36,012 nt of DNA from a virus (lineage: Duplodnaviria > Heunggongvirae > Uroviricota > Caudoviricetes), in the IMG/VR virus record IMGVR_UViG_2654587772_000001. One strand, given 5' to 3'. The notes below the pieces were generated by a model. That model searched no databases, had not been told where the DNA came from, and saw only the letters and a list, made by a program, of their open reading frames with translations. Both the position numbers and the translations under genes were made by a program. Of the stretch, positions 4,165 through 27,716 are shown piece after piece; positions within the stretch are counted from its first letter, which is position 1; each line of letters begins with the position of its first letter.

Positions 4165-6427
4165 AGCCTCCGGGCGTTTTGTCCCTCCGTCAGCATTTGC
4201 CGCAGGCACCGGTAAGACGTTTACCGGTGCTTATGCATGGAACGCGCCACGCGAGGCCGTCGGGCGCGAAAGACCCCTTACACGTGACGAGATGCGTCAG
4301 GTGCAAGGTGTTTTATCCACGATTAACCGCCTGCCTTACTTTTTGCGTTCGCTGTTTACTTCACGCTATGACTACATCCGGCGCAATAAAAGCCCGGTGC
4401 ACGGGTTTTATTTCCTCACATCCACTTTTCAGCGTCGTTTATGGCCGCGCATTGAGCGCGTGAATCAGCGCCATGAAATGAACACCGACGCGTCGTTGCT
4501 GTTTCTGGCAGAGCGTGACCACTATGCGCGCCTGCCTGGAATGAATGACAAGGAGCTGAAAAAGTTTGCCGCCCGTATCTCATCGCAGCTTTTCATGATG
4601 TATGAGGAACTCTGCGATGCATGGGGTGATGCGCATGGTGAAAAAGAATCGCTGTTTACGGATGAGGCGCAGGCTCACCTCTATGGTCATGTTGCTGGCG
4701 CTGCACGTGCTTTCAATATTTCCCCGCTCTACTGGAAAAAATACCGTAAAGGACAGATGACCACGAGGCAGGCATATTCTGCCATTGCCCGTCTGTTTAA
4801 CGATGAGTGGTGGATTAGTCAGCTTAAAGGCCAGCGTATGCGCTGGCATGAGGCGTTACTGATTGCTGTCGGGGAGGTCAATAAAGACCGTTCTCCTTAT
4901 GCCAGTAAACATGCCATTCGTGATGTGCGTGCGCGCCGCCAGGCAAATCTGGAATTTCTTAAATCGTGTGACCTTGAAAACAGGGAAACCGGCGAGCGCA
5001 TCGACCTTATCAGTAAGGTGATGGGCAGTATTTCTAATCCTGAAATTCGCCGGATGGAGCTGATGAACACCATTGCCGGTATTGAGCGTTACGCCGCCGC
5101 AGAGGGTGATGTGGGGATGTTTATCACGCTGACCGCGCCGTCAAAGTATCACCCGACACGTCAGGTCGGAAAAGGCGAAAGTAAAACCGTTCAGCTTAAT
5201 CACGGCTGGAACGATGAGGCATTTAATCCAAAGGATGCGCAGCGTTATCTCTGCCGTATCTGGAGCCTGATGCGCACGGCATTCAAGGATAATGATTTAC
5301 AGGTCTACGGTTTGCGAGTCGTCGAGCCACACCACGACGGAACGCCGCACTGGCATATGATGCTTTTTTGTCATCCACGCCAGCGTAACCAGATTATCGA
5401 AATCATGCGTCGCTATGCGCTCAAAGAGGATGGCGACGAAAGAGGAGCCGCGCGAAACCGTTTTCAGGCAAAACACCTTAACCGGGGCGGTGCTGCGGGA
5501 TATATCGCGAAATACATTTCAAAAAACATCGACGGCTATGCACTGGATGGTCAGCTCGATAACGACACCGGCAGGCCGCTGAAAGACACTGCAGCGGCTG
5601 TTACCGCATGGGCGTCAACGTGGCGCATTCCGCAATTTAAAACAGTTGGCCTGCCGACAATGGGGGCTTACCGTGAACTACGCAAATTGCCTCGCGGCGT
5701 CAGCATTGCTGATGAGTTTGACGAGCGCGTCGAGGCTGCACGCGCCGCCGCAGACAGTGGTGATTTTGCGTTGTATATCAGCGCGCAGGGTGGGGCAAAT
5801 GTCCCGCGCGATTGTCAGACTGTCAGGGTCGCCCGTAGCCCGTCGGATGACGTTAACGAGTATGAGGAAGAAGTCGAGAGAGTGGTCGGCATTTACGCGC
5901 CGCATCTCGGCGCGCGTCATATTCATATCACCAGAACGACGGACTGGCGCATTGTGCCGAAAGTTCCGGTCGTGGAGCCTTTGACTTTAAAAAGCGGCAT
6001 CGCCGCGCCTCGGAGTCCTGTCAATAACTGTGGAAAACTCACCGGTGGTGATACTTCGTTACCGGCTCCCACACCTTCTGAGCACGCCGCAGCAGTGCTT
6101 AATCTGGTAGATGACGGTGTTATCGAATGGAATGACCAGGAGGTCGTGAGGGCGCTCAGAGGTGCATTAAAACACGGTCTGAGAAGACCAAACCGTCAGC
6201 AAAGAAACGGAAGCCCGTTAAAACCGCATGAAATAGCGCCATCGGCCAGACTGACCCGGTCGGAACGAATGCAAATTACCCGTATCCGCGTTGACCTTGC
6301 TCAGAACGGTATCAGGCCGCAGCGATGGGAGCTTGAGGCGCTGGCGCGTGGTGCAATTGTGAACTATGGCGCAAAAGAATTTCATTACCATGTTCAGAAG
6401 GCGTGGGAAGCATTTTCGAGGTGGTAA
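4154..6427 (+). CDS. A: replication initiation endonuclease A (rolling-circle initiator)
   Basis: Track ORF 4112..6427 starts at TTG; first ATG is 4154 (MDVKASGRFVPP...), about 757 aa; long match to remembered P2 gpA including the HxH metal motif (PHWHMMLF) and the YxxK active-site region (AGYIAKYISK). Confidence 0.9.
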   Translation: MDVKASGRFVPPSAFAAGTGKTFTGAYAWNAPREAVGRERPLTRDEMRQVQGVLSTINRLPYFLRSLFTSRYDYIRRNKSPVHGFYFLTSTFQRRLWPRIERVNQRHEMNTDASLLFLAERDHYARLPGMNDKELKKFAARISSQLFMMYEELCDAWGDAHGEKESLFTDEAQAHLYGHVAGAARAFNISPLYWKKYRKGQMTTRQAYSAIARLFNDEWWISQLKGQRMRWHEALLIAVGEVNKDRSPYASKHAIRDVRARRQANLEFLKSCDLENRETGERIDLISKVMGSISNPEIRRMELMNTIAGIERYAAAEGDVGMFITLTAPSKYHPTRQVGKGESKTVQLNHGWNDEAFNPKDAQRYLCRIWSLMRTAFKDNDLQVYGLRVVEPHHDGTPHWHMMLFCHPRQRNQIIEIMRRYALKEDGDERGAARNRFQAKHLNRGGAAGYIAKYISKNIDGYALDGQLDNDTGRPLKDTAAAVTAWASTWRIPQFKTVGLPTMGAYRELRKLPRGVSIADEFDERVEAARAAADSGDFALYISAQGGANVPRDCQTVRVARSPSDDVNEYEEEVERVVGIYAPHLGARHIHITRTTDWRIVPKVPVVEPLTLKSGIAAPRSPVNNCGKLTGGDTSLPAPTPSEHAAAVLNLVDDGVIEWNDQEVVRALRGALKHGLRRPNRQQRNGSPLKPHEIAPSARLTRSERMQITRIRVDLAQNGIRPQRWELEALARGAIVNYGAKEFHYHVQKAWEAFSRW

Positions 6428-6537
6428 TCTAAATATGAAAAATCTGCACACCGAAACACTCTTGTAGGTTGATAATTTGCAAACTAGGTGGATTTACTCT
6501 TTGATGTGTAAGAAGTTATACTACAAAAAATTGATTT

Positions 6538-7458
6538 ATGGGCTTGGCGATGTATAACGATCCTTATAGTGACCCAAAAGCGTGGGAATCATATTTCAAA
6601 AATATTGTTTGGCTACATTATAAGCCTGCTAACTGTTGTGACTTGCCAGATGAGCATGGAGGCGACTTTGGGCTGGAGTGTTACACTCTGAGTGGTCATG
6701 TTTTTCAGTGTTACTTGCCTGAGCAGTCGAGTGATATTGATAAGCTTTATAAAGCGCAACAAAAAAAGATTTATACTGATATAAAAAAGTTTTCTCAGGA
6801 TAACATTAAAGAATTAGAGGAGCTTTTTGGCACATTAAAAATTAGCCGCTGGATATTAGCTACACCATATAATAAATCGGCGAAATTAAGTCAATATTGC
6901 ACAAAAAAATCATTAAAAGTAAGAGAGTTAGGGATTTCTTACGTTGCTGATGATTTTCAAATAGTAGTGCAAACAGATCGAAATTATATAGAAGAAGCGT
7001 TCTTTCTTCGCAAAAATAACTATCAATTAAGCTTTAATATAAATGATGCGACGGCTGAGAATGCTGCTAACTTTATTAGTGAAAATACATCTTTTTTAGA
7101 TAAGCTAAATTTAAAATTACCTAAGATAAATGATGATGTATCTAGGCAGGGTTTATATAGAGAGTTTTTAATACAAAAATATCTTGATTATCAAAACTTG
7201 CTGGATGCTTTGAAGAGAGACTGGGTTGATATCTATGAAATTATCTATAACTGTGTTCAACATAGAGAACGTAATTTGGTAGGTCTCTTTCTTCTTACTT
7301 CATCAGATGCGAAACCATCAGATATAATGAAAGATGAAATCGCTTTGTTAAAGAAATGTATTGAAGAGGAAGTTAGTACGCTTAAACAGGCTGACTTGGA
7401 TAAGATAACATGGGGAGTTATTTCTGATTGGCTTATAAGATGCCCTTTAGATTTTTAG
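6538..7458 (+). CDS. hypothetical protein, gene 1 of the AT-rich cargo operon (candidate effector component)
   Basis: 306-aa ORF in AT-rich DNA at the tin/old position; no motif recognised by eye apart from a Cys/His-rich N-terminal patch (CCDLPDEHGGDFGLECYTLSGHVFQCY); weak RBS. Confidence 0.6.
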   Translation: MGLAMYNDPYSDPKAWESYFKNIVWLHYKPANCCDLPDEHGGDFGLECYTLSGHVFQCYLPEQSSDIDKLYKAQQKKIYTDIKKFSQDNIKELEELFGTLKISRWILATPYNKSAKLSQYCTKKSLKVRELGISYVADDFQIVVQTDRNYIEEAFFLRKNNYQLSFNINDATAENAANFISENTSFLDKLNLKLPKINDDVSRQGLYREFLIQKYLDYQNLLDALKRDWVDIYEIIYNCVQHRERNLVGLFLLTSSDAKPSDIMKDEIALLKKCIEEEVSTLKQADLDKITWGVISDWLIRCPLDF

Positions 7459-7459
7459 A

Positions 7460-7936
7460 ATGGAAAAGCAAATGCATATAACGATAGATGAAATAATAGG
7501 AAGGCCGTTTACGTTTAATAAACGACCTGAACATTTGCCATGTGATATGAGACCATTGTGGCGTTGCAGTTTGTTGCTGATAATATTCCTTGTCACAGGG
7601 AGAGCTGGTTGCTGTTCTTTAAAAAAACTTCATTTAATTAATTGGATGTTAAAGTCAGAGAATAATGAAGCAATGTTTGAATTCTGGCTTTTAAACAAAG
7701 AAGGTTTAAAGCCTGAAGTAAGATTGGATCCAACTTTAGATAGAGCAATACAGCTATTATTAGCAGAGGATTTTATTTTGAGAAATGAACGAGCGTTCAA
7801 AATAAATGAAAAGGGGCTTAAGGTCGCTGAGAAATTGCTTTCTCTTGATGTGTTCAAAGAAGAAAGGTTGGTGCTAAATAAACATAAGGCTGGACTGTCC
7901 GAAACTAACATTAATAAAATATTTCAGGTGGGTTAA
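7460..7936 (+). CDS. hypothetical small protein, gene 2 of the cargo operon (candidate middle/adaptor component)
   Basis: 158-aa ORF; its ATG lies 1 nt after the gene 1 stop and its stop 1 nt before the gene 3 ATG, indicating translational coupling. Confidence 0.55.
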   Translation: MEKQMHITIDEIIGRPFTFNKRPEHLPCDMRPLWRCSLLLIIFLVTGRAGCCSLKKLHLINWMLKSENNEAMFEFWLLNKEGLKPEVRLDPTLDRAIQLLLAEDFILRNERAFKINEKGLKVAEKLLSLDVFKEERLVLNKHKAGLSETNINKIFQVG

Positions 7937-7937
7937 T

Positions 7938-9959
7938 ATGTCGTTGGAAATTATTTCATTGGAGTTAGTAGCAAATACTTCGGATGGGCGTTATGGTGTT
8001 AGTATACCTTTTTCAAATGGCTTGTTTTTATTAAGAGTTGAGAATTCTCATGGTAAATCAACTTGCATGAATGGGATTGCATATGCACTTGGGATGGAAA
8101 AGGCATTAGGTGTCGGTTCTGGAAAAATCCCATTCCCTCCATCTTTGACTAGAGCACTAACGACAAAAGATAATGTTGAAGTTAGTGTAATATCATCTTA
8201 TGTTTTGCTAAAAATAAAGAATCATAAGGGAATAGAAGCATCTTTGAAAAGGAATATTATCGGTCACGATAATAATAATGTTATTTATATAGATGAGAAG
8301 AATAATGTAAAAAGTAAGAGTGGTACTTATTTTTTACATAGAGAGGGCGATACTGAAAGGGAACGTGGTTTCTATAAGTGGTTAGCTGATTTTATAGGTT
8401 GGAGTTTGCCAAATGTTCCAAACCATAATGGGAAGGACACTATTCTTTATCCATCCGTACTTTTCCCTGCATGGTATGTTGAGCAAAAAAAAGGATGGTC
8501 GTCAATTATGGCGACTGTACCAACACAATTTGGAATTAAAGAGCCAAAGAAAAGAGCTCTAGAATTTTTAATGTCTCTTGATGTTAATGATAATATTTTA
8601 TTGCGTAGTTCGTTAAGAAATGAACTTGATATTATTTATCATGATTGGAAGTTAATTAAACACAATGCAGAAGTTATTGCTTCTAAATTGTCGTCAGTTG
8701 TCACAGGGATTCCTGAACAACCAGTGGCAAAATTTGATCATTATAAGATAGATTTGATTATTAAAAATGGTAGCGTCGTTAGATCTATTGTTGATGTTCG
8801 TAATGAACTGGAAAAAGAGTTGCAAGAAATTAAGTTTGACACTCTTGGTGAGCAAGAAGAACAAACTTTACAATTATCAGTGGTTAAGTTATTAGGTCAA
8901 AAAAATGATGAAATTAACTCTCTGGAATTAAAGATTAAAGAGATTTGTGAGCATAGAAGTTATATTCAATATCAAATTCAGGCGACCAAAAACAGATTGT
9001 ATAATCTGTTGGAAGATAAAAGGAAGTATGAAGATTTAAAGAAAATATCATCTTCGGATGCGTATAAGTCAACAGATTTAATGTCAAATATTTGTCCGAC
9101 TTGTGGTGCAAGTTATAATGATAATTTGCTAAGTTTTTCATCGCAAGAAAATCTGATGACATATGAAGATAGTTTGAACTTTATTAAAGAGCAAGTAAAA
9201 GCATTTGAGTTTGTTCTGTCGGATAGTGAAAAGCAATTAAAGCTTAAAGATGTTGAGAGGAGTGATTTAGAGGGGGAAATAGCCAAGATTAGAGTTGATA
9301 TTAATGCATTAAGGGAGTCAAAATATCCCTCAATGGTTGTTCAGGAGGAGTTTCTGAGACGTAAAATAAACATTGAGAATAAAATTAATGCCATTAACGA
9401 TGGCATTAAAAGTATATTGGACATTAGACTGGAGTTGGATTCATTACACCGTAGATATAAAAAGCTTATCGCGAAAAGAAAAGGGTTGCCAGATAATTTC
9501 TTGTCGCGTAATGATGCCGATAAGTTAAAATTTCTTAATAAAGAAGTCGTTGCACGATTAGAAAAATATAATTTTACAAGTTTTGATTCTAAACTTGTGT
9601 CAATATCAGAAGATAATTACTTACCTACTAGGGAAGGATATGATATAGGTTTTGACACATCAGCTAGTGATGGAATAAGAATCATTTGGGGTTATTTAAT
9701 AAGTTTATTTGTTGTTGGTTCTAAATTTCAAACAAATCACCCTGGATTGATTGTGTTTGATGAGCCTCGTCAACAAGAAGCAAATAAAGTAAGTTTTGCC
9801 GAGTTACTTAAAGATGCTGCAGAAACAACAAAAGGACAAGGGCAGATCATTTTTGCTACATCAGAAGATGAAAATGTCTTAAAAGAGGCATTAGAAGGGT
9901 ATGACTATACAATGATATCCTTTGATAAGAACAATGGGAAATTGTTGAGGAAATTATAA
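7938..9959 (+). CDS. SMC/Rad50-like ABC ATPase with coiled coil and CxxC hook (LmuB/DdmC-like), gene 3 of the cargo operon
   Basis: 673 aa; Walker A VENSHGKST (aa 34-42); long E/K/L-rich heptad-like region aa 280-540; CPTC at aa 386-389 (nt 9093..9104) mid coiled coil; signature-like SASDG and Walker B GLIVFDEP (aa 603-610); SD AGGTGG upstream. Confidence 0.75.
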   Translation: MSLEIISLELVANTSDGRYGVSIPFSNGLFLLRVENSHGKSTCMNGIAYALGMEKALGVGSGKIPFPPSLTRALTTKDNVEVSVISSYVLLKIKNHKGIEASLKRNIIGHDNNNVIYIDEKNNVKSKSGTYFLHREGDTERERGFYKWLADFIGWSLPNVPNHNGKDTILYPSVLFPAWYVEQKKGWSSIMATVPTQFGIKEPKKRALEFLMSLDVNDNILLRSSLRNELDIIYHDWKLIKHNAEVIASKLSSVVTGIPEQPVAKFDHYKIDLIIKNGSVVRSIVDVRNELEKELQEIKFDTLGEQEEQTLQLSVVKLLGQKNDEINSLELKIKEICEHRSYIQYQIQATKNRLYNLLEDKRKYEDLKKISSSDAYKSTDLMSNICPTCGASYNDNLLSFSSQENLMTYEDSLNFIKEQVKAFEFVLSDSEKQLKLKDVERSDLEGEIAKIRVDINALRESKYPSMVVQEEFLRRKINIENKINAINDGIKSILDIRLELDSLHRRYKKLIAKRKGLPDNFLSRNDADKLKFLNKEVVARLEKYNFTSFDSKLVSISEDNYLPTREGYDIGFDTSASDGIRIIWGYLISLFVVGSKFQTNHPGLIVFDEPRQQEANKVSFAELLKDAAETTKGQGQIIFATSEDENVLKEALEGYDYTMISFDKNNGKLLRKL

Positions 9960-10082
9960 ACTTTTATGTTGCTGCATTAGAATGCATGATTATTGTTTAT
10001 CTGTTAAGAGTGCTCCGTGCCAGTGTCGGCGCGGAGAAATCATGTCATGCACCTGCATTAAAACCGACCCATGAAGCGGGCG

Positions 10083-13172: not shown

Positions 13173-13250
13173 TGATGGCGGAGGATGCGCATCGTCGGGA
13201 AACTGATGCCGACATGTGACTCCTCTAATCACTATTCAGGACTCCTGACA

Positions 13251-13865
13251 ATGGCAAAAAAAGTCTCAAAATTCTTTCGTATCGGCGTTGAGGGTGACAC
13301 CTGTGACGGGCGTGTCATCAGTGCGCAGGATATTCAGGAAATGGCTGAAACCTTTGACCCGCGTGTCTACGGTTGCCGCATTAACCTGGAACATCTGCGC
13401 GGCATCCTGCCTGACGGTATTTTTAAACGTTATGGCGATGTGGTCGAACTGAAGGCCGAAAAGATTGATGACGATTCGGCGCTGAAAGGCAAATGGGCGC
13501 TGTTTGCGAAAATCACCCCGACCGATGACCTTATCGCGATGAACAAGGCCGCGCAGAAGGTCTATACCTCAATGGAAATTCAGCCGAACTTTGCCAACAC
13601 CGGCAAATGTTATCTGGTGGGGCTGGCCGTCACCGATGACCCGGCAAGCCTCGGCACGGAATACCTGGAATTCTGCCGCACGGCAAAACACAACCCTCTG
13701 AACCGCTTCAAATTAAGCCCTGAAAACCTGATTTCAGTGGCAACGCCCGTTGAGCTGGAATTTGAAGACCTGCCTGAAACCGTGTTCACCGCCCTGACCG
13801 AAAAGGTGAAATCCATTTTTGGCCGCAAACAGGCCAGCGATGACGCCCTGATGACGAACTGCTGA
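13251..13865 (+). CDS. O: capsid scaffolding protein/protease O (shorter than canonical)
   Basis: First ATG 13251 (MAKKVSKFFRIGVEGDTCDGR...) gives 204 aa; track ORF starts upstream without a plausible start; N-terminus matches P2 gpO. Confidence 0.85.
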   Translation: MAKKVSKFFRIGVEGDTCDGRVISAQDIQEMAETFDPRVYGCRINLEHLRGILPDGIFKRYGDVVELKAEKIDDDSALKGKWALFAKITPTDDLIAMNKAAQKVYTSMEIQPNFANTGKCYLVGLAVTDDPASLGTEYLEFCRTAKHNPLNRFKLSPENLISVATPVELEFEDLPETVFTALTEKVKSIFGRKQASDDALMTNC

Positions 13866-18191: not shown

Positions 18192-18336
18192 CCCGGAGAC
18201 GAACGGCGATTTAAGTGCCGATATCCGGCAGCTTGAGAACGCGCTGGCACGCTGTGCCAGCCAGGTAAAAATGATTAAACACTGTCAGGACGAAAACGAT
18301 GCTCAAACCCGACAGCCTGCGCAGGGCGCTGACTGA
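18046..18336 (+). CDS. lysC: LysC (Rz1-like outer-membrane lipoprotein spanin), starts inside lysB in another frame
   Basis: 96-aa ORF from ATG 18046 (MKTRIFAAGMALSCLMLCAGCTS...) with lipobox LCAGC; extends past lysB as in P2. Confidence 0.7.
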   Translation: MKTRIFAAGMALSCLMLCAGCTSVPPAPMPVIVHNACPKVSLCPMPGSDPETNGDLSADIRQLENALARCASQVKMIKHCQDENDAQTRQPAQGAD

Positions 18337-18766
18337 TGACGTCACGGTGCTGAAAACTAACCCCGATATGCTGCGGATATTCGTGGATAACGGGAGTATT
18401 GCCTCCACGCTGGCGGAGTCGTTGTCATTCGAAAAGCGTTACACGCTCAATGTCATTGTGACCGACTTTACCGGTGATTTTGACCTGCTCATCGTGCCGG
18501 TGCTGGCGTGGCTGCGGGAAAATCAGCCCGACATCATGACCACCGACGAAGGCCAGAAAAAGGGCTTCACGTTTTATGCAGACATCAACAATGACAGCAG
18601 CTTTGATATCAGCATCAGCCTGATGCTGACCGAGCGCACGCTGGTCAGTGAGGTGGACGGCGCACTGCATGTGAAGAATATCCCGGAACCCACGCCGCCG
18701 GAGCCGGTCACCCGCCCGATGGAGCTTTATATCAATGGTGAACTGGTGAGCAAGTGGGATGAATGA
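18299..18766 (+). CDS. R: tail completion protein R
   Basis: 155-aa ORF; P2 gpR length and position. Confidence 0.85.
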   Translation: MLKPDSLRRALTDDVTVLKTNPDMLRIFVDNGSIASTLAESLSFEKRYTLNVIVTDFTGDFDLLIVPVLAWLRENQPDIMTTDEGQKKGFTFYADINNDSSFDISISLMLTERTLVSEVDGALHVKNIPEPTPPEPVTRPMELYINGELVSKWDE

Positions 18767-19220
18767 GTTTAAGCGTTTTGAAGACCGGCTGACCGGACTG
18801 ATTGAGTCGCTGTCACCGTCAGGGCGTCGTCGACTGGCGGTAGATATTGCGAAGAAGCTGCGCCAGCGCCAGCAGCAGCGAATTAAATTACAAAAAGCCC
18901 CGGATGGTACGCCGTATGTACCGAGAAAAAACCAACCAGTACGAAATAAGAAAGGCCGGATAAAGCGGGAAATGTTTATGAAATTACGCACTAACCGGTT
19001 TATGAAAGCAACCGGTAGCGAGAGTGCCGCGGTGGTGGAGTTTGCCAGCGGAGTGCAACGAATTGCGCGAGTGCATCAGTATGGTTTAAAAGATAGACCC
19101 AATCCCGACGTTAAACCTATTAAGTATGATGAACGTAAACTACTTGGTTTTTCACATAATGATATTGACTTTATAGAATCAACGATCATTAATTGTCTTC
19201 TGGAAAAATCCAGAGAATAG
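18759..19220 (+). CDS. S: tail completion protein S (3' end divergent and AT-rich)
   Basis: 153-aa ORF; N-terminus matches P2 gpS; the last roughly 45 codons are AT-rich. Confidence 0.8.
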   Translation: MNEFKRFEDRLTGLIESLSPSGRRRLAVDIAKKLRQRQQQRIKLQKAPDGTPYVPRKNQPVRNKKGRIKREMFMKLRTNRFMKATGSESAAVVEFASGVQRIARVHQYGLKDRPNPDVKPIKYDERKLLGFSHNDIDFIESTIINCLLEKSRE

Positions 19221-19235
19221 GAAGGTAAAGTACAA

Positions 19236-19775
19236 GTGACATGTAAAAAGAATGAAGGTGATGTTGTAAAGAAAATTGAACTGGTGCTGAAAACAATCGC
19301 GCGGACGGATTCTTATTTAAATTCAGCCAATACTAAATCAACGATATTACTAAGCTTAGCTTCAGCTGTAATTGTTGCTATTATAGCAAATTTTGACAAA
19401 GTTATATGTCTGGTAGATGTGGATAGTGATAGGATTTTTCTCTCTCTTTTATTGATTGTAATAGTTGGGTTATTGGTGATCTCTTTGTTATTTTCTCTAA
19501 AAGGTGTTACTCCAAATATCTCTAAGAGTGATAAGGAGAATACTTTTTCATTTGTTGATATATCAAGTTATTATAGTAGTCTTGATTGCTATTCTAGTAG
19601 TTTTAAGTCAGTGAGTGATCTGGAGTTGTTGGAGCAGTTAATTGCATTGAATTATACTCTTTCCAGAGCATTAACTAGCAAATATGAGATGCAAATCATA
19701 GCCATTGACTTTATAAAAATGGCTGTTTATGTGCTTTGTTTTTTAATATATGTGGTTGCTTTATCTAATTGGTGA
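19236..19775 (+). CDS. small membrane protein with 3 predicted TM helices (candidate membrane effector, SLATT/PycTM-like)
   Basis: 179-aa ORF from GTG 19236 (no in-frame ATG until near the end); SD AGGAAGG upstream; hydrophobic stretches STILLSLASAVIVAIIANF, IFLSLLLIVIVGLLVISLLFSL, MAVYVLCFLIYVVALS; AT-rich. Confidence 0.55.
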   Translation: MTCKKNEGDVVKKIELVLKTIARTDSYLNSANTKSTILLSLASAVIVAIIANFDKVICLVDVDSDRIFLSLLLIVIVGLLVISLLFSLKGVTPNISKSDKENTFSFVDISSYYSSLDCYSSSFKSVSDLELLEQLIALNYTLSRALTSKYEMQIIAIDFIKMAVYVLCFLIYVVALSNW

Positions 19776-19785
19776 AGGTTTTTGT

Positions 19786-21138
19786 ATGTCCATAAAGAGT
19801 ATTTATTTAGTATTAGATGAAAGGCTGGAAGAGATAATTTCAAAATCAAAATCGCAATCAGTCCATGATGCTATATTTGAATCAGTGGATAATACACAGT
19901 TGGCCACGGAGAGCTTAAGTAAATCTTCTGGTTTCGTAAGAAGTTCTATTTCATTGAAAAAAGATGTAGGTGGAGCTGATGTTCAAAGTTATCAGGTGAA
20001 AGATATTGTTAGAAATAAATTTGGCAAGCACGGTCCACTCATGACAAGTTTTGGATGTCATCCGGACTTTAATAAAATGGATGATGGTGAGGTGAGAAAT
20101 GGTTATTCCATTACCATGTTTATGGATATAATCGGCTCAACTAAACTTGGGGTTGTTTTTCCACCAGAAATAGTATTTAGAATCAAAAATGATATTATAA
20201 GATGTGCGATCGAAACAGTGAATGCATTTGATGGTCACGTCCATAGAATTATGGGTGATGCAGTAATGGCATTTTTCCGAAGTAATGACCGATATAAAAA
20301 CAATAAGATCGCAGACAGTGCAATTGATGCAATAAACTGTGCCGTTGTTTTGATTGAAATGTTCAAGGGGGTTGTTATACCTAAATTGAGTGATTTGGGA
20401 GTTGACGAAAACTTAGGAATAAGAATTGGTCTTGACTATGGCCCTCACGAGGAAGTGGTGTGGTCAAAATATGGCTATATGGAAAGTCATGAAGTGACTG
20501 CGACATCTTTTTTTGTTGATGTTGCGGCAAAACTTCAGCAAAAAGCTCCTAAAAACTCAATTATGATAGGTGCAAGTTTTGTAGAGTTATTAGGCCTTGA
20601 TGATGTTCAATTAAAACATAAAATTAACAGAAACAATGGCGTAGAACACAAGGAATTGTATTTAACCCCAAATTATAAAGATGCTTCAGGCAAACCAATA
20701 AATTACAGACAATATGTATTTGATAACGAACGTTATTGTAATTTGCTGCCTATAAATGATGAGGGGGGTAAACTCATTGTAAAAGCAACGCTTAAGAAGA
20801 GTGAAAATGATGTGTCTGATGATGAGTATATTTGTTGTTCTCGAATGATAAAAAAGGGTATGGGTATCTCATTTAAAGGGTACTATTACTCACAAGAACA
20901 GTACTCTAATCCCAGGTTCAAATTTCGTGTCGAAAATACAGGTCCTGATGCAGGTAATGTTGATAATAAGGGTAATCATGAGTCATATGAGGTAGCAAGG
21001 TACACTGGCGAGCGTTATTTTGCTAAGCATTGGGAAGATTGTCATTACAAAGGACTGCATTATATGTTTGTATCTTTTTGGAATGGGGATCAATTAATAG
21101 AAAGGGAGAGGTGTTTTTCAGTTTTTATTAACGATTAA
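19786..21138 (+). CDS. class III nucleotidyl cyclase-domain protein (candidate PycC-like cyclase)
   Basis: 450 aa from ATG 19786 (SD GAAGG 8 nt upstream; track start 19750 overlaps the upstream gene); motifs SITMFMDIIGSTKL (aa 108-121), HRIMGDAVMAFF (153-164), GIRIGLDYGP (211-220), SFFVDVAAKL (241-250) resembling the FxDIxGFT / IGDxxMA / GIHxGxV / VNxAARL blocks of adenylyl/guanylyl-type cyclases. Confidence 0.7.
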   Translation: MSIKSIYLVLDERLEEIISKSKSQSVHDAIFESVDNTQLATESLSKSSGFVRSSISLKKDVGGADVQSYQVKDIVRNKFGKHGPLMTSFGCHPDFNKMDDGEVRNGYSITMFMDIIGSTKLGVVFPPEIVFRIKNDIIRCAIETVNAFDGHVHRIMGDAVMAFFRSNDRYKNNKIADSAIDAINCAVVLIEMFKGVVIPKLSDLGVDENLGIRIGLDYGPHEEVVWSKYGYMESHEVTATSFFVDVAAKLQQKAPKNSIMIGASFVELLGLDDVQLKHKINRNNGVEHKELYLTPNYKDASGKPINYRQYVFDNERYCNLLPINDEGGKLIVKATLKKSENDVSDDEYICCSRMIKKGMGISFKGYYYSQEQYSNPRFKFRVENTGPDAGNVDNKGNHESYEVARYTGERYFAKHWEDCHYKGLHYMFVSFWNGDQLIERERCFSVFIND

Positions 21139-21238
21139 ATTGTGATTTATTTGAGGGGGGGAATGTAGTCTGTTGTATCATACCTCACCAAAGCATCAAA
21201 ATTTGCCGCTAGTGTAAACTAGCGGCATCCTTCCCGTT

Positions 21239-21874
21239 ATGAACACTCTCGCAAATATTCAGGAACTCGCGCGCGCACTGCGCAACATGATTCGCACCGG
21301 CATTATCATCGAAACCGACCTTAACGCCGGTCGCTGCCGTGTGCAGACCGGCGGCATGTGCACCGACTGGCTTCAGTGGCTGACCTGTCGTGCCGGGCGT
21401 TCGCGCACATGGTGGGCACCTTCCGTGGGGGAGCAGGTGCTGATTCTGGCCGTGGGCGGTGAACTTGACACGGCGTTTGTTCTGCCGGGGATTTATTCCG
21501 GCGATAACCCCGCGCCGTCTGCGTCGGCGGATGCCCTGCATATCCGTTTCCCTGACGGGGCGGTGATTGAGTATGAACCCGAAACCAGTGCACTCACGGT
21601 AAGCGGAATTAAAACGGCCAGCGTGACGGCTTCTGATTCTGTTACTGCCACGGTGCCGGTGGTCACGGTGAAAGCATCAACCCGCGTCACCCTGGACACA
21701 CCGGAGGTGGTCTGCACCAACAGGCTGATTACCGGCACGCTGGAAGTGCAGAAGGGCGGGACGATGCGCGGCAACATTGAACACACCGGCGGTGAACTCT
21801 CATCAAACGGTAAGGTACTGCATACCCATAAACACCCCGGCGACAGCGGCGGCACAACCGGGAGTCCTCTATGA
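21239..21874 (+). CDS. V: baseplate spike protein V
   Basis: 211-aa ORF; P2 gpV length and sequence. Confidence 0.9.
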   Translation: MNTLANIQELARALRNMIRTGIIIETDLNAGRCRVQTGGMCTDWLQWLTCRAGRSRTWWAPSVGEQVLILAVGGELDTAFVLPGIYSGDNPAPSASADALHIRFPDGAVIEYEPETSALTVSGIKTASVTASDSVTATVPVVTVKASTRVTLDTPEVVCTNRLITGTLEVQKGGTMRGNIEHTGGELSSNGKVLHTHKHPGDSGGTTGSPL

Positions 21875-26094: not shown

Positions 26095-26463
26095 TTACTC
26101 ACCAACAGCCCACCAACTGTAATTCATCGATACCGTGTCGCTGGTTGATGACGTTCTGTAAGCAGAATTAAAGCCGGTTAACGTTGGGCCTTCTGCAGTC
26201 ATCACGAACCCTCGCCCAGCGCCTAAAGGCGCACCGCCATCACCAGAATGAGTAAGCATGGCGCAGTCCGCTTTTTTGGGGAAAGGGATGCTGAATGTAA
26301 TTCTCATTGTTTGCGTCGATAATGTCGGCGTAACCGCACCACGACCATATTGCAGGATTTTCCCGTTGGGTAATTTCATCCATCCATCACCACTGGCAAA
26401 AGAGGCCATGTCCGGTATCTGATTTTCCCCTGTCCCCACATCCCGTTTTGCCGCTTCTCTCAA
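26095..26463 (-). CDS. alternative tail fibre C-terminal segment (promoter-less and start-less; would fuse to H after inversion)
   Basis: Open frame on the minus strand running to the crossover site at about 26466 with no credible own start; Gly/Thr/Ser-rich fibre-tip-like sequence. Confidence 0.6.
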   Translation of the reverse strand: MREAAKRDVGTGENQIPDMASFASGDGWMKLPNGKILQYGRGAVTPTLSTQTMRITFSIPFPKKADCAMLTHSGDGGAPLGAGRGFVMTAEGPTLTGFNSAYRTSSTSDTVSMNYSWWAVGE

Positions 26464-26480
26464 ACCAACGTTTTATGGAA
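26455..26480. repeat. invertase crossover site (hix/gix-like), right copy
   Basis: TTCTCTCAAACCAACGTTTTATGGAA; inverted-repeat partner of 24548..24573. Confidence 0.45.
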
Positions 26481-26570
26481 TCGGTTAAATATGATGTTGA
26501 AAGAAGGGAGTGTCCTAGTATTGATTGTTAGATAAAAATGGAAAGTGCTGATTGTAACGGTATATTTTAA

Positions 26571-26598
26571 GATGGTAACACCAAATGGTGCTACCATC
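26571..26598. terminator. candidate bidirectional rho-independent terminator
   Basis: Hairpin GATGGTAACACC-AAAT-GGTGCTACCATC followed by TTTATT on the + strand and by an A/T-rich tract on the - strand; lies just downstream of the minus-strand 105-aa gene. Confidence 0.4.
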
Positions 26599-26606
26599 TT
26601 TATTAG

Positions 26607-26924
26607 TTATCTGTTCCTTCTGAGGATTCCGCTACTCCCTTGTGTTGTAGGGTTTAATTTTTTCCAATAATGATAACCTTGTGATGTAATCCTTAGAGAG
26701 GCAGTATCTACACTCCATCCATCAATACTTTCAGGAGAACCATCGAAGATTACCTTTCCTGTAAGATACCCATCGTCATGCAGAAAGGCGATATATCCAT
26801 AAACTTCTTTTAAATCACCAATTTCATTGACTAGGCGTTCCCACGCTTGAACAGTGATTCTCTCTGGATAGGCTTCGACAAAATATTTCAGTGTGGTAGT
26901 TTTTTTATTGGTATCGATGTTCAT
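26607..26924 (-). CDS. hypothetical protein (AT-rich moron between the invertible segment and the invertase)
   Basis: 105-aa ORF with ATG at 26924 and a good SD (AAGGAAA) upstream on the minus strand; AT-rich; no recognisable motif. Confidence 0.5.
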   Translation of the reverse strand: MNIDTNKKTTTLKYFVEAYPERITVQAWERLVNEIGDLKEVYGYIAFLHDDGYLTGKVIFDGSPESIDGWSVDTASLRITSQGYHYWKKLNPTTQGSSGILRRNR

Positions 26925-27122
26925 CAGATTTTCCTTTTATTGAGGTCAACCTATCTTACCATACTTATTTGTTTCACATGGGAATGCTAAGTGGGCTATG
27001 TATCCACTATCAGTAAATATTCTTATCCAGCAAGATTACTGTAACTGAGAGCTCCATAGCCTTGTCCGCTTGTACATATATAGATAATTCTGTGTCATTA
27101 TTCTGTTTTTATAGGGATTTTT

Positions 27123-27716
27123 ATGCGTATAGGTTATGTTCGTGTATCAACAAATGACCAGAACACGGAATTGCAGCGTAACGCGCTCGAGTGCGCAGGA
27201 TGTGAGCTGATTTTTGAGGATAAAATCAGCGGCACGAAGTCCGACCGACCGGGGCTGAAAAAACTGCTCAGAACATTATCAGCAGGTGACACTCTGGTAG
27301 TCTGGAAGCTGGACAGGCTGGGGCGTAGTATGCGGCATCTGGTCATTCTGGTTGAGGAACTGCGCGAACGCGGCATTAATTTTCGCAGCCTGACAGATGC
27401 TATTGATACCAGCACGCCGATGGGGCGTTTTTTCTTTCATGTGATGGGTGCCCTGGCTGAAATGGAACGAGAACTCATTGTCGAACGGACTCGGGCCGGG
27501 CTGGAAGCGGCCAGAGCCAAAGGTCGTATTGGTGGCAGACGTCCTAAACTCACCACGAGTGAGTGGGAGCAGGTCGGGCGTTTGCTGGCTGCAGGGGAGT
27601 CACGTCAACGCGTGGCACTGATTTTTGATATTGGCCTGTCCACGCTCTATAAAAAATTTCCCTCATCAGCGATAAAGAATAAATTGTGTCATCCCTTAGC
27701 CAACCGGGACAAATAG
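27123..27716 (+). CDS. serine DNA invertase (Hin/Gin/Pin/Cin family)
   Basis: 197-aa ORF; N-terminal resolvase catalytic domain with GYVRVST-DQ (Ser nucleophile), LVVWKLDRLGRS, and a C-terminal HTH; closely resembles Hin/Gin. Confidence 0.9.
   Translation: MRIGYVRVSTNDQNTELQRNALECAGCELIFEDKISGTKSDRPGLKKLLRTLSAGDTLVVWKLDRLGRSMRHLVILVEELRERGINFRSLTDAIDTSTPMGRFFFHVMGALAEMERELIVERTRAGLEAARAKGRIGGRRPKLTTSEWEQVGRLLAAGESRQRVALIFDIGLSTLYKKFPSSAIKNKLCHPLANRDK
27684..27710 (+). promoter_or_regulatory. late-promoter upstream element (candidate PF) TTGTGTCATCCCTTAGCCAACCGGGAC
   Basis: 21/27 identical to the element upstream of O (13146..13172); ends about 66 nt before the FI start; lies inside the 3' end of the invertase gene. 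Confidence 0.45.

Follow-up and report, generated by a model that had tools for sequence, protein, structure and literature searches.

The stretch of DNA analyzed here (the window, 36,012 nucleotides) is a P2-like Escherichia coli prophage, and it is 100% identical to the ST2747 prophage, which is sited between yegR and yegQ. Gene S (18759..19220, plus strand) is an open reading frame of 153 amino acids that encodes a tail completion protein; it belongs to Pfam family PF05069 and its product is named 'phage virion morphogenesis protein' in RefSeq. Gene R (18299..18766) lies directly 5' of S, so that S is placed after R and before V, as in the P2-type late operon. Between S and V two more plus-strand genes are found. 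PycTM, the Pycsar membrane effector (19236..19775; PADLOC PycTM 8.5e-29; Pfam PF18967; the RefSeq coordinates agree), starts 16 nt after the S stop codon and is followed by PycC, the Pycsar pyrimidine cyclase (19786..21138; PADLOC PycC 1.5e-128; Pfam Guanylate_cyc and AGS_C). Pycsar is an already known anti-phage system, and PycC with its adjoining effector PycTM is predicted to be such a system. Gene V, the baseplate spike (21239..21874, plus strand; Pfam Phage_base_V and Phage_spike), is of the backbone type, with 97-99% amino acid identity to V of cargo-free or other-cargo E. coli prophages.

Other parts of the window are also AT-rich or altered. Three hypothetical genes of about 0.9, 0.5 and 2.0 kb lie in a large AT-rich island at 6351..10063, which separates replication gene A from portal gene Q and which we take to be the classical old/tin hotspot for defence genes. 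A second interval, 26431..27223 and about 27123..27716, separates the genes for tail-fibre assembly from the sheath gene; it is AT-rich, has small minus-strand ORFs beside a recombinase-family (invertase-like) gene and is presumably the Z/fun-type hotspot, with a fibre segment that is possibly invertible. The capsid scaffold gene O (13185..13865) is truncated to 226 amino acids, compared with 284, and is annotated in RefSeq as a pseudogene without its C-terminus; in the A30 and PEC1012 prophages, which carry the same S tail and Pycsar genes, gene O is full (855 nt). The ST2747 prophage carries a DUF2732 pseudogene as well, and it is probably defective for reasons unrelated to S. Since its gpO is truncated, S may no longer be under selection in that strain.

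The C-terminus of S reads ...DRPNPDVKPIKYDERKLLGFSHNDIDFIESTIINCLLEKSRE in the window translation, and the version given in an earlier, sequence-only reading of this DNA matches the ORF exactly. That reading had also called the 3' end of S AT-rich, and indeed the G+C content drops from about 51% to 31% at 19078/19079, being 0.31 in S nucleotides 322-462 and 0.51-0.54 in the rest of the gene. GC3 is 0.20 in the S tail and 0.52 in the S head; the values are 0.27 for PycTM, 0.29 for PycC, 0.74 for R and 0.67 for V. When the whole window was scanned, 5.7% of the 142-nt segments were as AT-rich as the S tail; segments below 40% G+C cluster in islands, one of which (19041..21263) begins within S.

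The composition break is matched by a break in identity. The closest S allele for BLASTN is that of E. coli EN-1077, which is of the same type as that of phage R18C; the match runs with 96% identity up to 19078, stops, and restarts at 21163. Codons 1-26 of S (18759..18836) form a universal P2-type 5' end with 99% nucleotide identity to R18C and 97% to P2. Codons 27-107 (18837..19078) are an R18C-type and not a P2-type allele, with 96% nucleotide and 98% amino acid identity to R18C (and EN-1077) and 57% and 54% to P2. Codons 108-153 (19079..19220) are the AT-rich tail, tied by composition, identity and co-occurrence to the Pycsar cassette, and they show 46% nucleotide and 31% amino acid identity to R18C and 48% and 38% to P2. 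S is a three-part mosaic gene. It was suggested before that S starts with P2 sequence, which holds for codons 1-26 but not for codons 27-107; a second, upstream junction is therefore present near 18836/18837 (codon 26/27), and 19078/19079 is the second of the two. At 19078/19079 the breaks in identity and composition coincide, as for an exchange tract of homologous recombination. The junction lies directly 3' of the codons GTG CAT CAG (VHQ, at the end of ...ARVHQ), a patch kept at the nucleotide level in all but one of ten S alleles. If only P2 is used for comparison the change looks gradual, because codons 27-107 and 108-153 are both diverged from it; yet the idea that S is a uniformly distant allele of P2 S, with the even divergence along the gene that the sequence-only reading had considered, is refuted by the drop from 96% to 46% nucleotide identity at one position (R18C, EN-1077) and by the drop in GC3, and we give it practically no credence.

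At the other end of the block, backbone homology restarts just upstream of V (21163..21238, plus strand), as located by BLASTN and junction alignment. The BLASTN match restarts at 21163 when EN-1077 is the subject and at 21203 when a prophage without cargo is used. By position this junction corresponds to the pV activator site of the P2 annotation and to a hairpin at 21203..21227 (TTGCCGCTAGT-gtaa-ACTAGCGGCA), about 12 nt 5' of the V start codon. The hairpin stem is kept in related phages by paired changes (TTGCCGCCGG...CCGGCGGCA and TTGCTGCTGG...CCAGCGGCA), and the hairpin may belong to the pV region or to the 5' end of the V mRNA. In the P2 annotation the O-operon terminator comes right after S and is followed by the minus-strand orf30. 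No terminator-like site was detected on the plus strand of the window in the scanned interval 18700..21400, and late O-operon transcripts may for that reason read through the Pycsar genes.

The arrangement in the window is not a single case. The order R, S with an AT-rich tail, PycTM, PycC and V was found in ten diverged P2-like lineages, which include Klebsiella phage Kp4852-2, several IMG/VR and metagenome contigs and one Scandinavium genome. PycC in the other lineages is 52-66% identical to that of the window at the amino acid level, and in the four lineages compared PycTM is 51-59% and the S tail 46-54% identical. The tails of S proteins that stand beside other cargo or none, the phages nearest in backbone included, show 28-37% amino acid identity to the window tail, even where S codons 1-107 are 98% identical. 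From these comparisons the S tails appear to have diverged about as much as the cargo, as a co-diverged unit. The PycTM start lies 6-21 nt past the S stop codon in all ten lineages. The AT-rich part of the tail covers about 46 codons in the window and in one other lineage (L120) and about 17-25 codons elsewhere, and such a varying length is as expected from repeated crossovers inside the tail. In one of the Pycsar-bearing P2-like phages (L090, 3345..4543) about 1.2 kb of GC-rich DNA, which may be an insertion sequence, interrupts PycTM and likely inactivates that copy of the defence.

A full-length AT-rich S that could have served as donor was not found in an exhaustive search for the tail among 1.84 billion representatives, in which the best tail relatives were 54-59% identical. 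A word-indexed protein search with a 51-amino acid tail query returned truncated gene calls only and missed the window's own protein, so it is unusable for counts. In genome contigs, PycC used alone gave no match, and a PycC alignment gave only one Pseudomonas prophage and one distant match. Apart from one Pseudomonas prophage, PycC relatives of 45% identity or less were not in the S-V slot of P2-like phages, and no low-GC P2-like donor was found among the distant relatives; their loci are integrase-adjacent or in other defence contexts, without S. The exception is the prophage of Pseudomonas sp. SJZ074 (L087 / L114, 2884..6855), which shows S, a minus-strand RES-Xre toxin-antitoxin pair, PycC and a minus-strand PycTM, its PycC being 45% identical to that of the window. 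The slot downstream of S thus hosts Pycsar outside the Enterobacteriaceae too, in a different arrangement.

The extent of a more recent exchange was mapped by comparing the window with two E. coli prophages that bear the same cassette (L089 and L097). Against L089, a near-identical tract spans 18942..21322 (plus strand) across different P2-like backbones, with 5 mismatches in 2381 nt (0.2%); on its left there are 11 mismatches in 18830..18941, and on its right they become dense from 21323. The comparison with L097 gives a clean tract of 18581..21322. The backbone flanks differ by about 4-10%, compared with 0.2% in the tail and cassette. In the A30 and PEC1012 prophages the PycTM and PycC proteins are identical, the S protein accessions differ, and the tail-fibre genes are not those of the window. 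Such a pattern marks a homologous exchange of recent date, in which one crossover fell in S and the other in the 5' end of V.

We suggest the following mechanism. The last 46 codons of S would be part of the mobile unit, whose left boundary would thus fall inside S; the tail would be the C-terminus of another, more AT-rich S lineage, and its linkage to PycTM and PycC would have been kept while homologous recombination carried the unit from one P2-like phage to another. On the left, the crossover would take place in the conserved core of S, in the window right after the ...ARVHQ codons; on the right, it would fall at the pV promoter region and the 5' end of V, or past them. The outcome would be a chimeric but working S protein, in which the replaced part, a loop or small hairpin followed by a C-terminal amphipathic helix, would be one that is naturally variable in the family. 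That the end of S belongs to a travelling Pycsar unit at the known S-V accessory site is, in our judgment, probable.

Whether the chimeric S can work bears directly on this proposal, as the sequence-only reading had supposed that the function of S may be affected. The Pfam Phage_tail_S profile (PF05069, E = 3.5e-31) aligns S residues 3-147 with profile positions 2-147 of 148, and since this match spans the tail, the S-like pattern noticed there in the same reading is real. All lineages keep the tail in frame, with an end that lies within four codons of one aligned position. Its pN (0.23-0.46) is below its pS (0.55-0.94) in every pair, and dN/dS, where computable, is 0.2-0.47 in the tail and 0.05-0.30 in the head, which points to purifying selection on the tail that is weaker than on the head. 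An AlphaFold model of S (pLDDT 77) has a C-terminal helix at residues 133-152, and the 10-residue blocks over residues 111-150 have pLDDT values of 79-83; no solved relative of S was found by sequence, and a Foldseek search of the PDB with the model gave no match. In 36 enterobacterial S proteins, a set that was picked by hand and is head-biased, the variability of the family is concentrated in the last 40 or so residues. In PEC1012 the chimeric S lies within a late-gene array without pseudogenes and with an intact gpO. The plaque-forming phage R18C, whose viability is demonstrated according to PMC6823313, has the same S head with an equally foreign tail. Taken with the full-length profile match, the signs of purifying selection and the modelled helix, these two cases speak against impaired function, and the tail looks functional and not damaged.

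The same data bear on the possibility that a one-off illegitimate insertion placed the island inside S and, by destroying the native end, made the gene crippled or non-functional. With a truncated gpO and a DUF2732 pseudogene the ST2747 prophage is in any case probably defective, and the tail is only 31-38% identical to the P2 and R18C tails at the amino acid level, both of which would suit such a scar. Against it stand a genuine S C-terminus that matches the profile to position 147 of 148, the in-frame tail with its nearly constant end and pN below pS across ten lineages, the occurrence of the tail in intact late operons, and the exchange of the unit between backbones. We consider this explanation very unlikely. 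The sequence-only reading had spoken of a scar left by recombination within S with a distant S homologue. The recombination itself agrees with the sharp break and with a tail that occurs in E. coli only beside Pycsar (see below), but a one-off scar does not agree with ten co-diverged lineages and a near-identical tract of 2.4 kb that moved between E. coli backbones.

The link between the S tail and the cargo can be followed at the population level. A segment of 181 nt spanning the S tail is present in 5 of 5426 complete E. coli genomes, all five copies being 100% identical and all with Pycsar adjoining; the flanking S and V sequences occur with other cargo or none in about 1590 other E. coli genomes. 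We also built a table of 86 S-V loci from IMG/VR, phage records and E. coli genomes. In this table the S-V gap ranges from 66-68 nt (no cargo) to 2958 nt, has a G+C content of 0.32-0.44 and holds many unrelated contents. Every cargo-free locus (gap 66-68 nt) has a tail G+C of 0.46-0.57, and an AT-rich S tail is absent from all cargo-free loci among the 86; the sequence-only reading had raised the prospect that P2-like phages without cargo share the same 3' end, and this was not seen. The cargo-bearing loci fall into two classes. In the first, exemplified by P2, the backbone S tail is kept and the cargo begins after the S stop codon, and in the second the tail is replaced and AT-rich (G+C 0.33-0.42). 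AT-rich S tails are also found beside cargo on the opposite strand (L026, L028 and L078).

Other observations concern the cargo at further loci. In Klebsiella-type loci (L035, L051, L058, L062, L069, L077 and others) the cargos leave S intact and are held between two conserved frames. The left frame, directly after the S stop codon, has the hairpin ACTGTATCAGCTCAGATTTGAGCTGATACAGTTTTT, and the right one, before the pV site, reads ...GGGCTGATACAGATAAC; CTGATACAG is common to both, a sign that the S-V site may have another, separate system of cassette boundaries. In Enterobacter hormaechei a decayed P2-like remnant (L101, 3104..7699) consists of an integrase, S, cargo, a gpD fragment and Ogr. 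Its S is reduced to the last 80 codons and its cargo is a 791-amino acid protein, so here S tail and cargo have remained side by side while the phage around them decayed.

Forward look-ups of two kinds were made from the tail to the cargo. Three S proteins were picked solely by the tail motif D(I/V)D...(T/A)IIN, and PycTM and PycC were found in the S-V slot after all three. Two more were picked by the R18C-type tail GFD..SI(Q/H)L..E.(L/I)L, and in both cases the next gene was the R18C gp15-like gene, which is 61-81% identical among four examples. Tail type thus gave the correct cargo type in 5/5 blind look-ups. Another hypothesis is that the tail diverged by diversifying selection on S, such as escape from a host sensor or co-adaptation to a partner, and that the proximity of the cargo is a coincidence. 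The last 40 or so residues are in fact more variable, with a column entropy of 1.2-2.7 bits compared with 0.3-0.9 (in the same 36 hand-picked, head-biased enterobacterial proteins). However, the GC3 of the tail (0.20) is cargo-like and not backbone-like, the change is a block replacement with sharp edges instead of scattered substitutions, the tails at cargo-free loci are of the backbone type with normal G+C, dN/dS is below 1, and tail type predicts cargo type; we regard selection of this kind as improbable. The comparisons support instead an S tail that derives from the C-terminus of another S homologue and entered together with the cargo, through recombination within the gene.

A further question is why the tail and the cargo stay together. 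In the S tail lies the motif TTGACT-N17-ATTAAT (19165..19193, plus strand), which includes a GATC at 19184..19187 and is a candidate promoter or other cis element. In the form TTGAC(A/T)-N17-AT(T/A)AAT it occurs in the same register in 10/10 lineages, TTGAC and the 17-nt spacing being invariant, and the three lineages that were added later fit it exactly. The GAC codon of D137 and the AAT codon of N145 are invariant in all ten, and the codons xTT GAC are so although GAC is non-preferred in the AT-rich block; the other invariant tail residues (G109, L110, R126, L128 and G130) use 4-6 different codons each. As a background, PycC has an invariant codon at 4 of 156 invariant-residue columns (2.6%), a statistic in which, as with the other codon counts, the lineages share ancestry and are not independent trials. 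The -35-like TTGACT at 19165..19170 is the consensus and the 17-nt spacer is optimal for sigma-70. The -10-like hexamer (ATTAAT or ATAAAT) has T at -7, but T and not the canonical A at -11, and no register satisfies both.

A scan with the sigma-70 consensus gave no enrichment of promoter-like sites (12 found, 9.7 expected in shuffles). The best plus-strand match of that scan, TTCACA-17-TAGAAT (19151..19179, 10/12), was rejected as the cassette promoter, as it is not conserved in the other lineages. The motif is not shared at a comparable distance by the regions upstream of PycTM in non-P2 contexts, and in R18C-type tails no convincing promoter was found by eye.

P2 late operons, with their Ogr-dependent late promoters, are silent in lysogens. 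As PycTM starts 6-21 nt past the S stop codon, a cassette that protects the lysogen would then need its promoter inside the S tail, and the motif at 19165..19193 would be the candidate for it. A promoter in this place would explain the linkage of tail and cargo. It is not the general cause of linkage, because AT-rich tails also stand beside minus-strand cargo, and simple hitch-hiking of donor S sequence explains those three loci. Pure hitch-hiking may account for the Pycsar-bearing phages as well: the tail would be donor S left between the crossover and the cargo and would carry no signal, and the motif would reflect protein constraint and ancestry. It is favored by the minus-strand cargo, for which S cannot hold a promoter, by the non-canonical -10-like hexamer and the lack of enrichment of promoter-like matches, and by an AT-rich length that varies between about 17 and 46 codons, a variation which successive crossovers would produce. 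It is harder to reconcile with the xTT GAC codons that are invariant in 10/10 lineages, compared with 4-6 codons at other tail residues and 2.6% in PycC, and with a distance from the S stop codon to PycTM that is too short in every lineage to offer a promoter another place. We hold pure hitch-hiking to be a serious possibility, somewhat short of an even chance. We put forward tentatively, on the basis of the codon pattern, the idea that a cassette promoter or other cis element is overprinted on about the last 20 codons of this essential tail gene, and we give it clearly less than even odds.

The site itself is known. According to PMC6823313 and PMC3091744, the S/V region (orf30) is one of three known moron regions of P2-like phages, and it is credited there to Christie & Calendar and to Nilsson & Haggard-Ljungquist. 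As in the window, the orf30 site is an S-V slot with AT-rich content that varies between otherwise near-identical phages, and its right edge is just 5' of the pV activator site. In P2, by contrast, the cargo (orf30, minus strand) comes after the S stop codon and the O-operon terminator and S is untouched, whereas in the window the variable block starts 142 nt inside S, with no plus-strand terminator detected in 18700..21400. As the foreign block starts at 19079, inside the flanking essential gene, the locus is a variant of the classical S/V moron site.

Two phages come closer to the window. R18C also has S codons 1-107 that are 96-99% identical at the nucleotide level, an AT-rich replaced tail (G+C 0.31-0.37) and a plus-strand cargo gene 12 nt later, and here too a tail type of its own travels with its own cargo; it differs in that its tail is 31% identical to that of the window at the amino acid level, its cargo is a 246-amino acid gp15-like protein and its viability, unlike that of the window prophage, is demonstrated. 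Kp4852-2 (OK490408) has the same order S-PycTM-PycC-V and the same tail motif, and its tail is 46-48% identical to that of the window, compared with 28-37% for non-Pycsar tails. It differs in its PycC (62% amino acid identity), its backbone (about 74-79%), a shorter AT-rich part and an S of 149 amino acids.

Rapid swapping of cargo between near-identical backbones has been described for the defence hotspots of P2-like phages (Rousset et al. 2022, PMC9122126; PMC13586616), and defence systems within P2 tail genes have also been reported (PMC13586616). The hotspots of these two sources resemble the window in that defence cargo sits in a fixed slot and recurs almost unchanged in different backbones; the mechanism proposed for the swapping is recombination within core genes on the flanks. 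Their focus is on the A-Q (old/tin) and Z/fun hotspots, and term searches of both papers gave no passage on a cassette boundary inside S or on a correspondence between tail and cargo. Our literature search, with a coverage that ends short of the older P2 papers of Nilsson et al., found no description of co-transfer of an S tail with its cargo. Plus-strand cassettes that start inside S and bring a matching S C-terminus are thus apparently new; otherwise the moron site is a known one and the mosaicism is of the ordinary phage kind, although gene tail and cargo are linked with unusual clarity.

These results have some practical consequences. Hotspot surveys that delimit cargo by the flanking core genes will misplace the boundary, and the S tail can be used as a cheap marker for the cargo family (5/5). 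For defence assays, the cassette is best cloned together with the last ~150 nt of S, as these may contain the native promoter. The case also places one edge of an exchangeable defence cassette, in a phage family that is well studied, inside an essential structural gene. If the overprinting of the S tail is true, gene tail, promoter and cargo would be one portable module, which would explain why each plus-strand cargo family at the P2 S/V site has an S C-terminus of its own, and the exchange of defence cassettes would continually rewrite part of a structural protein.
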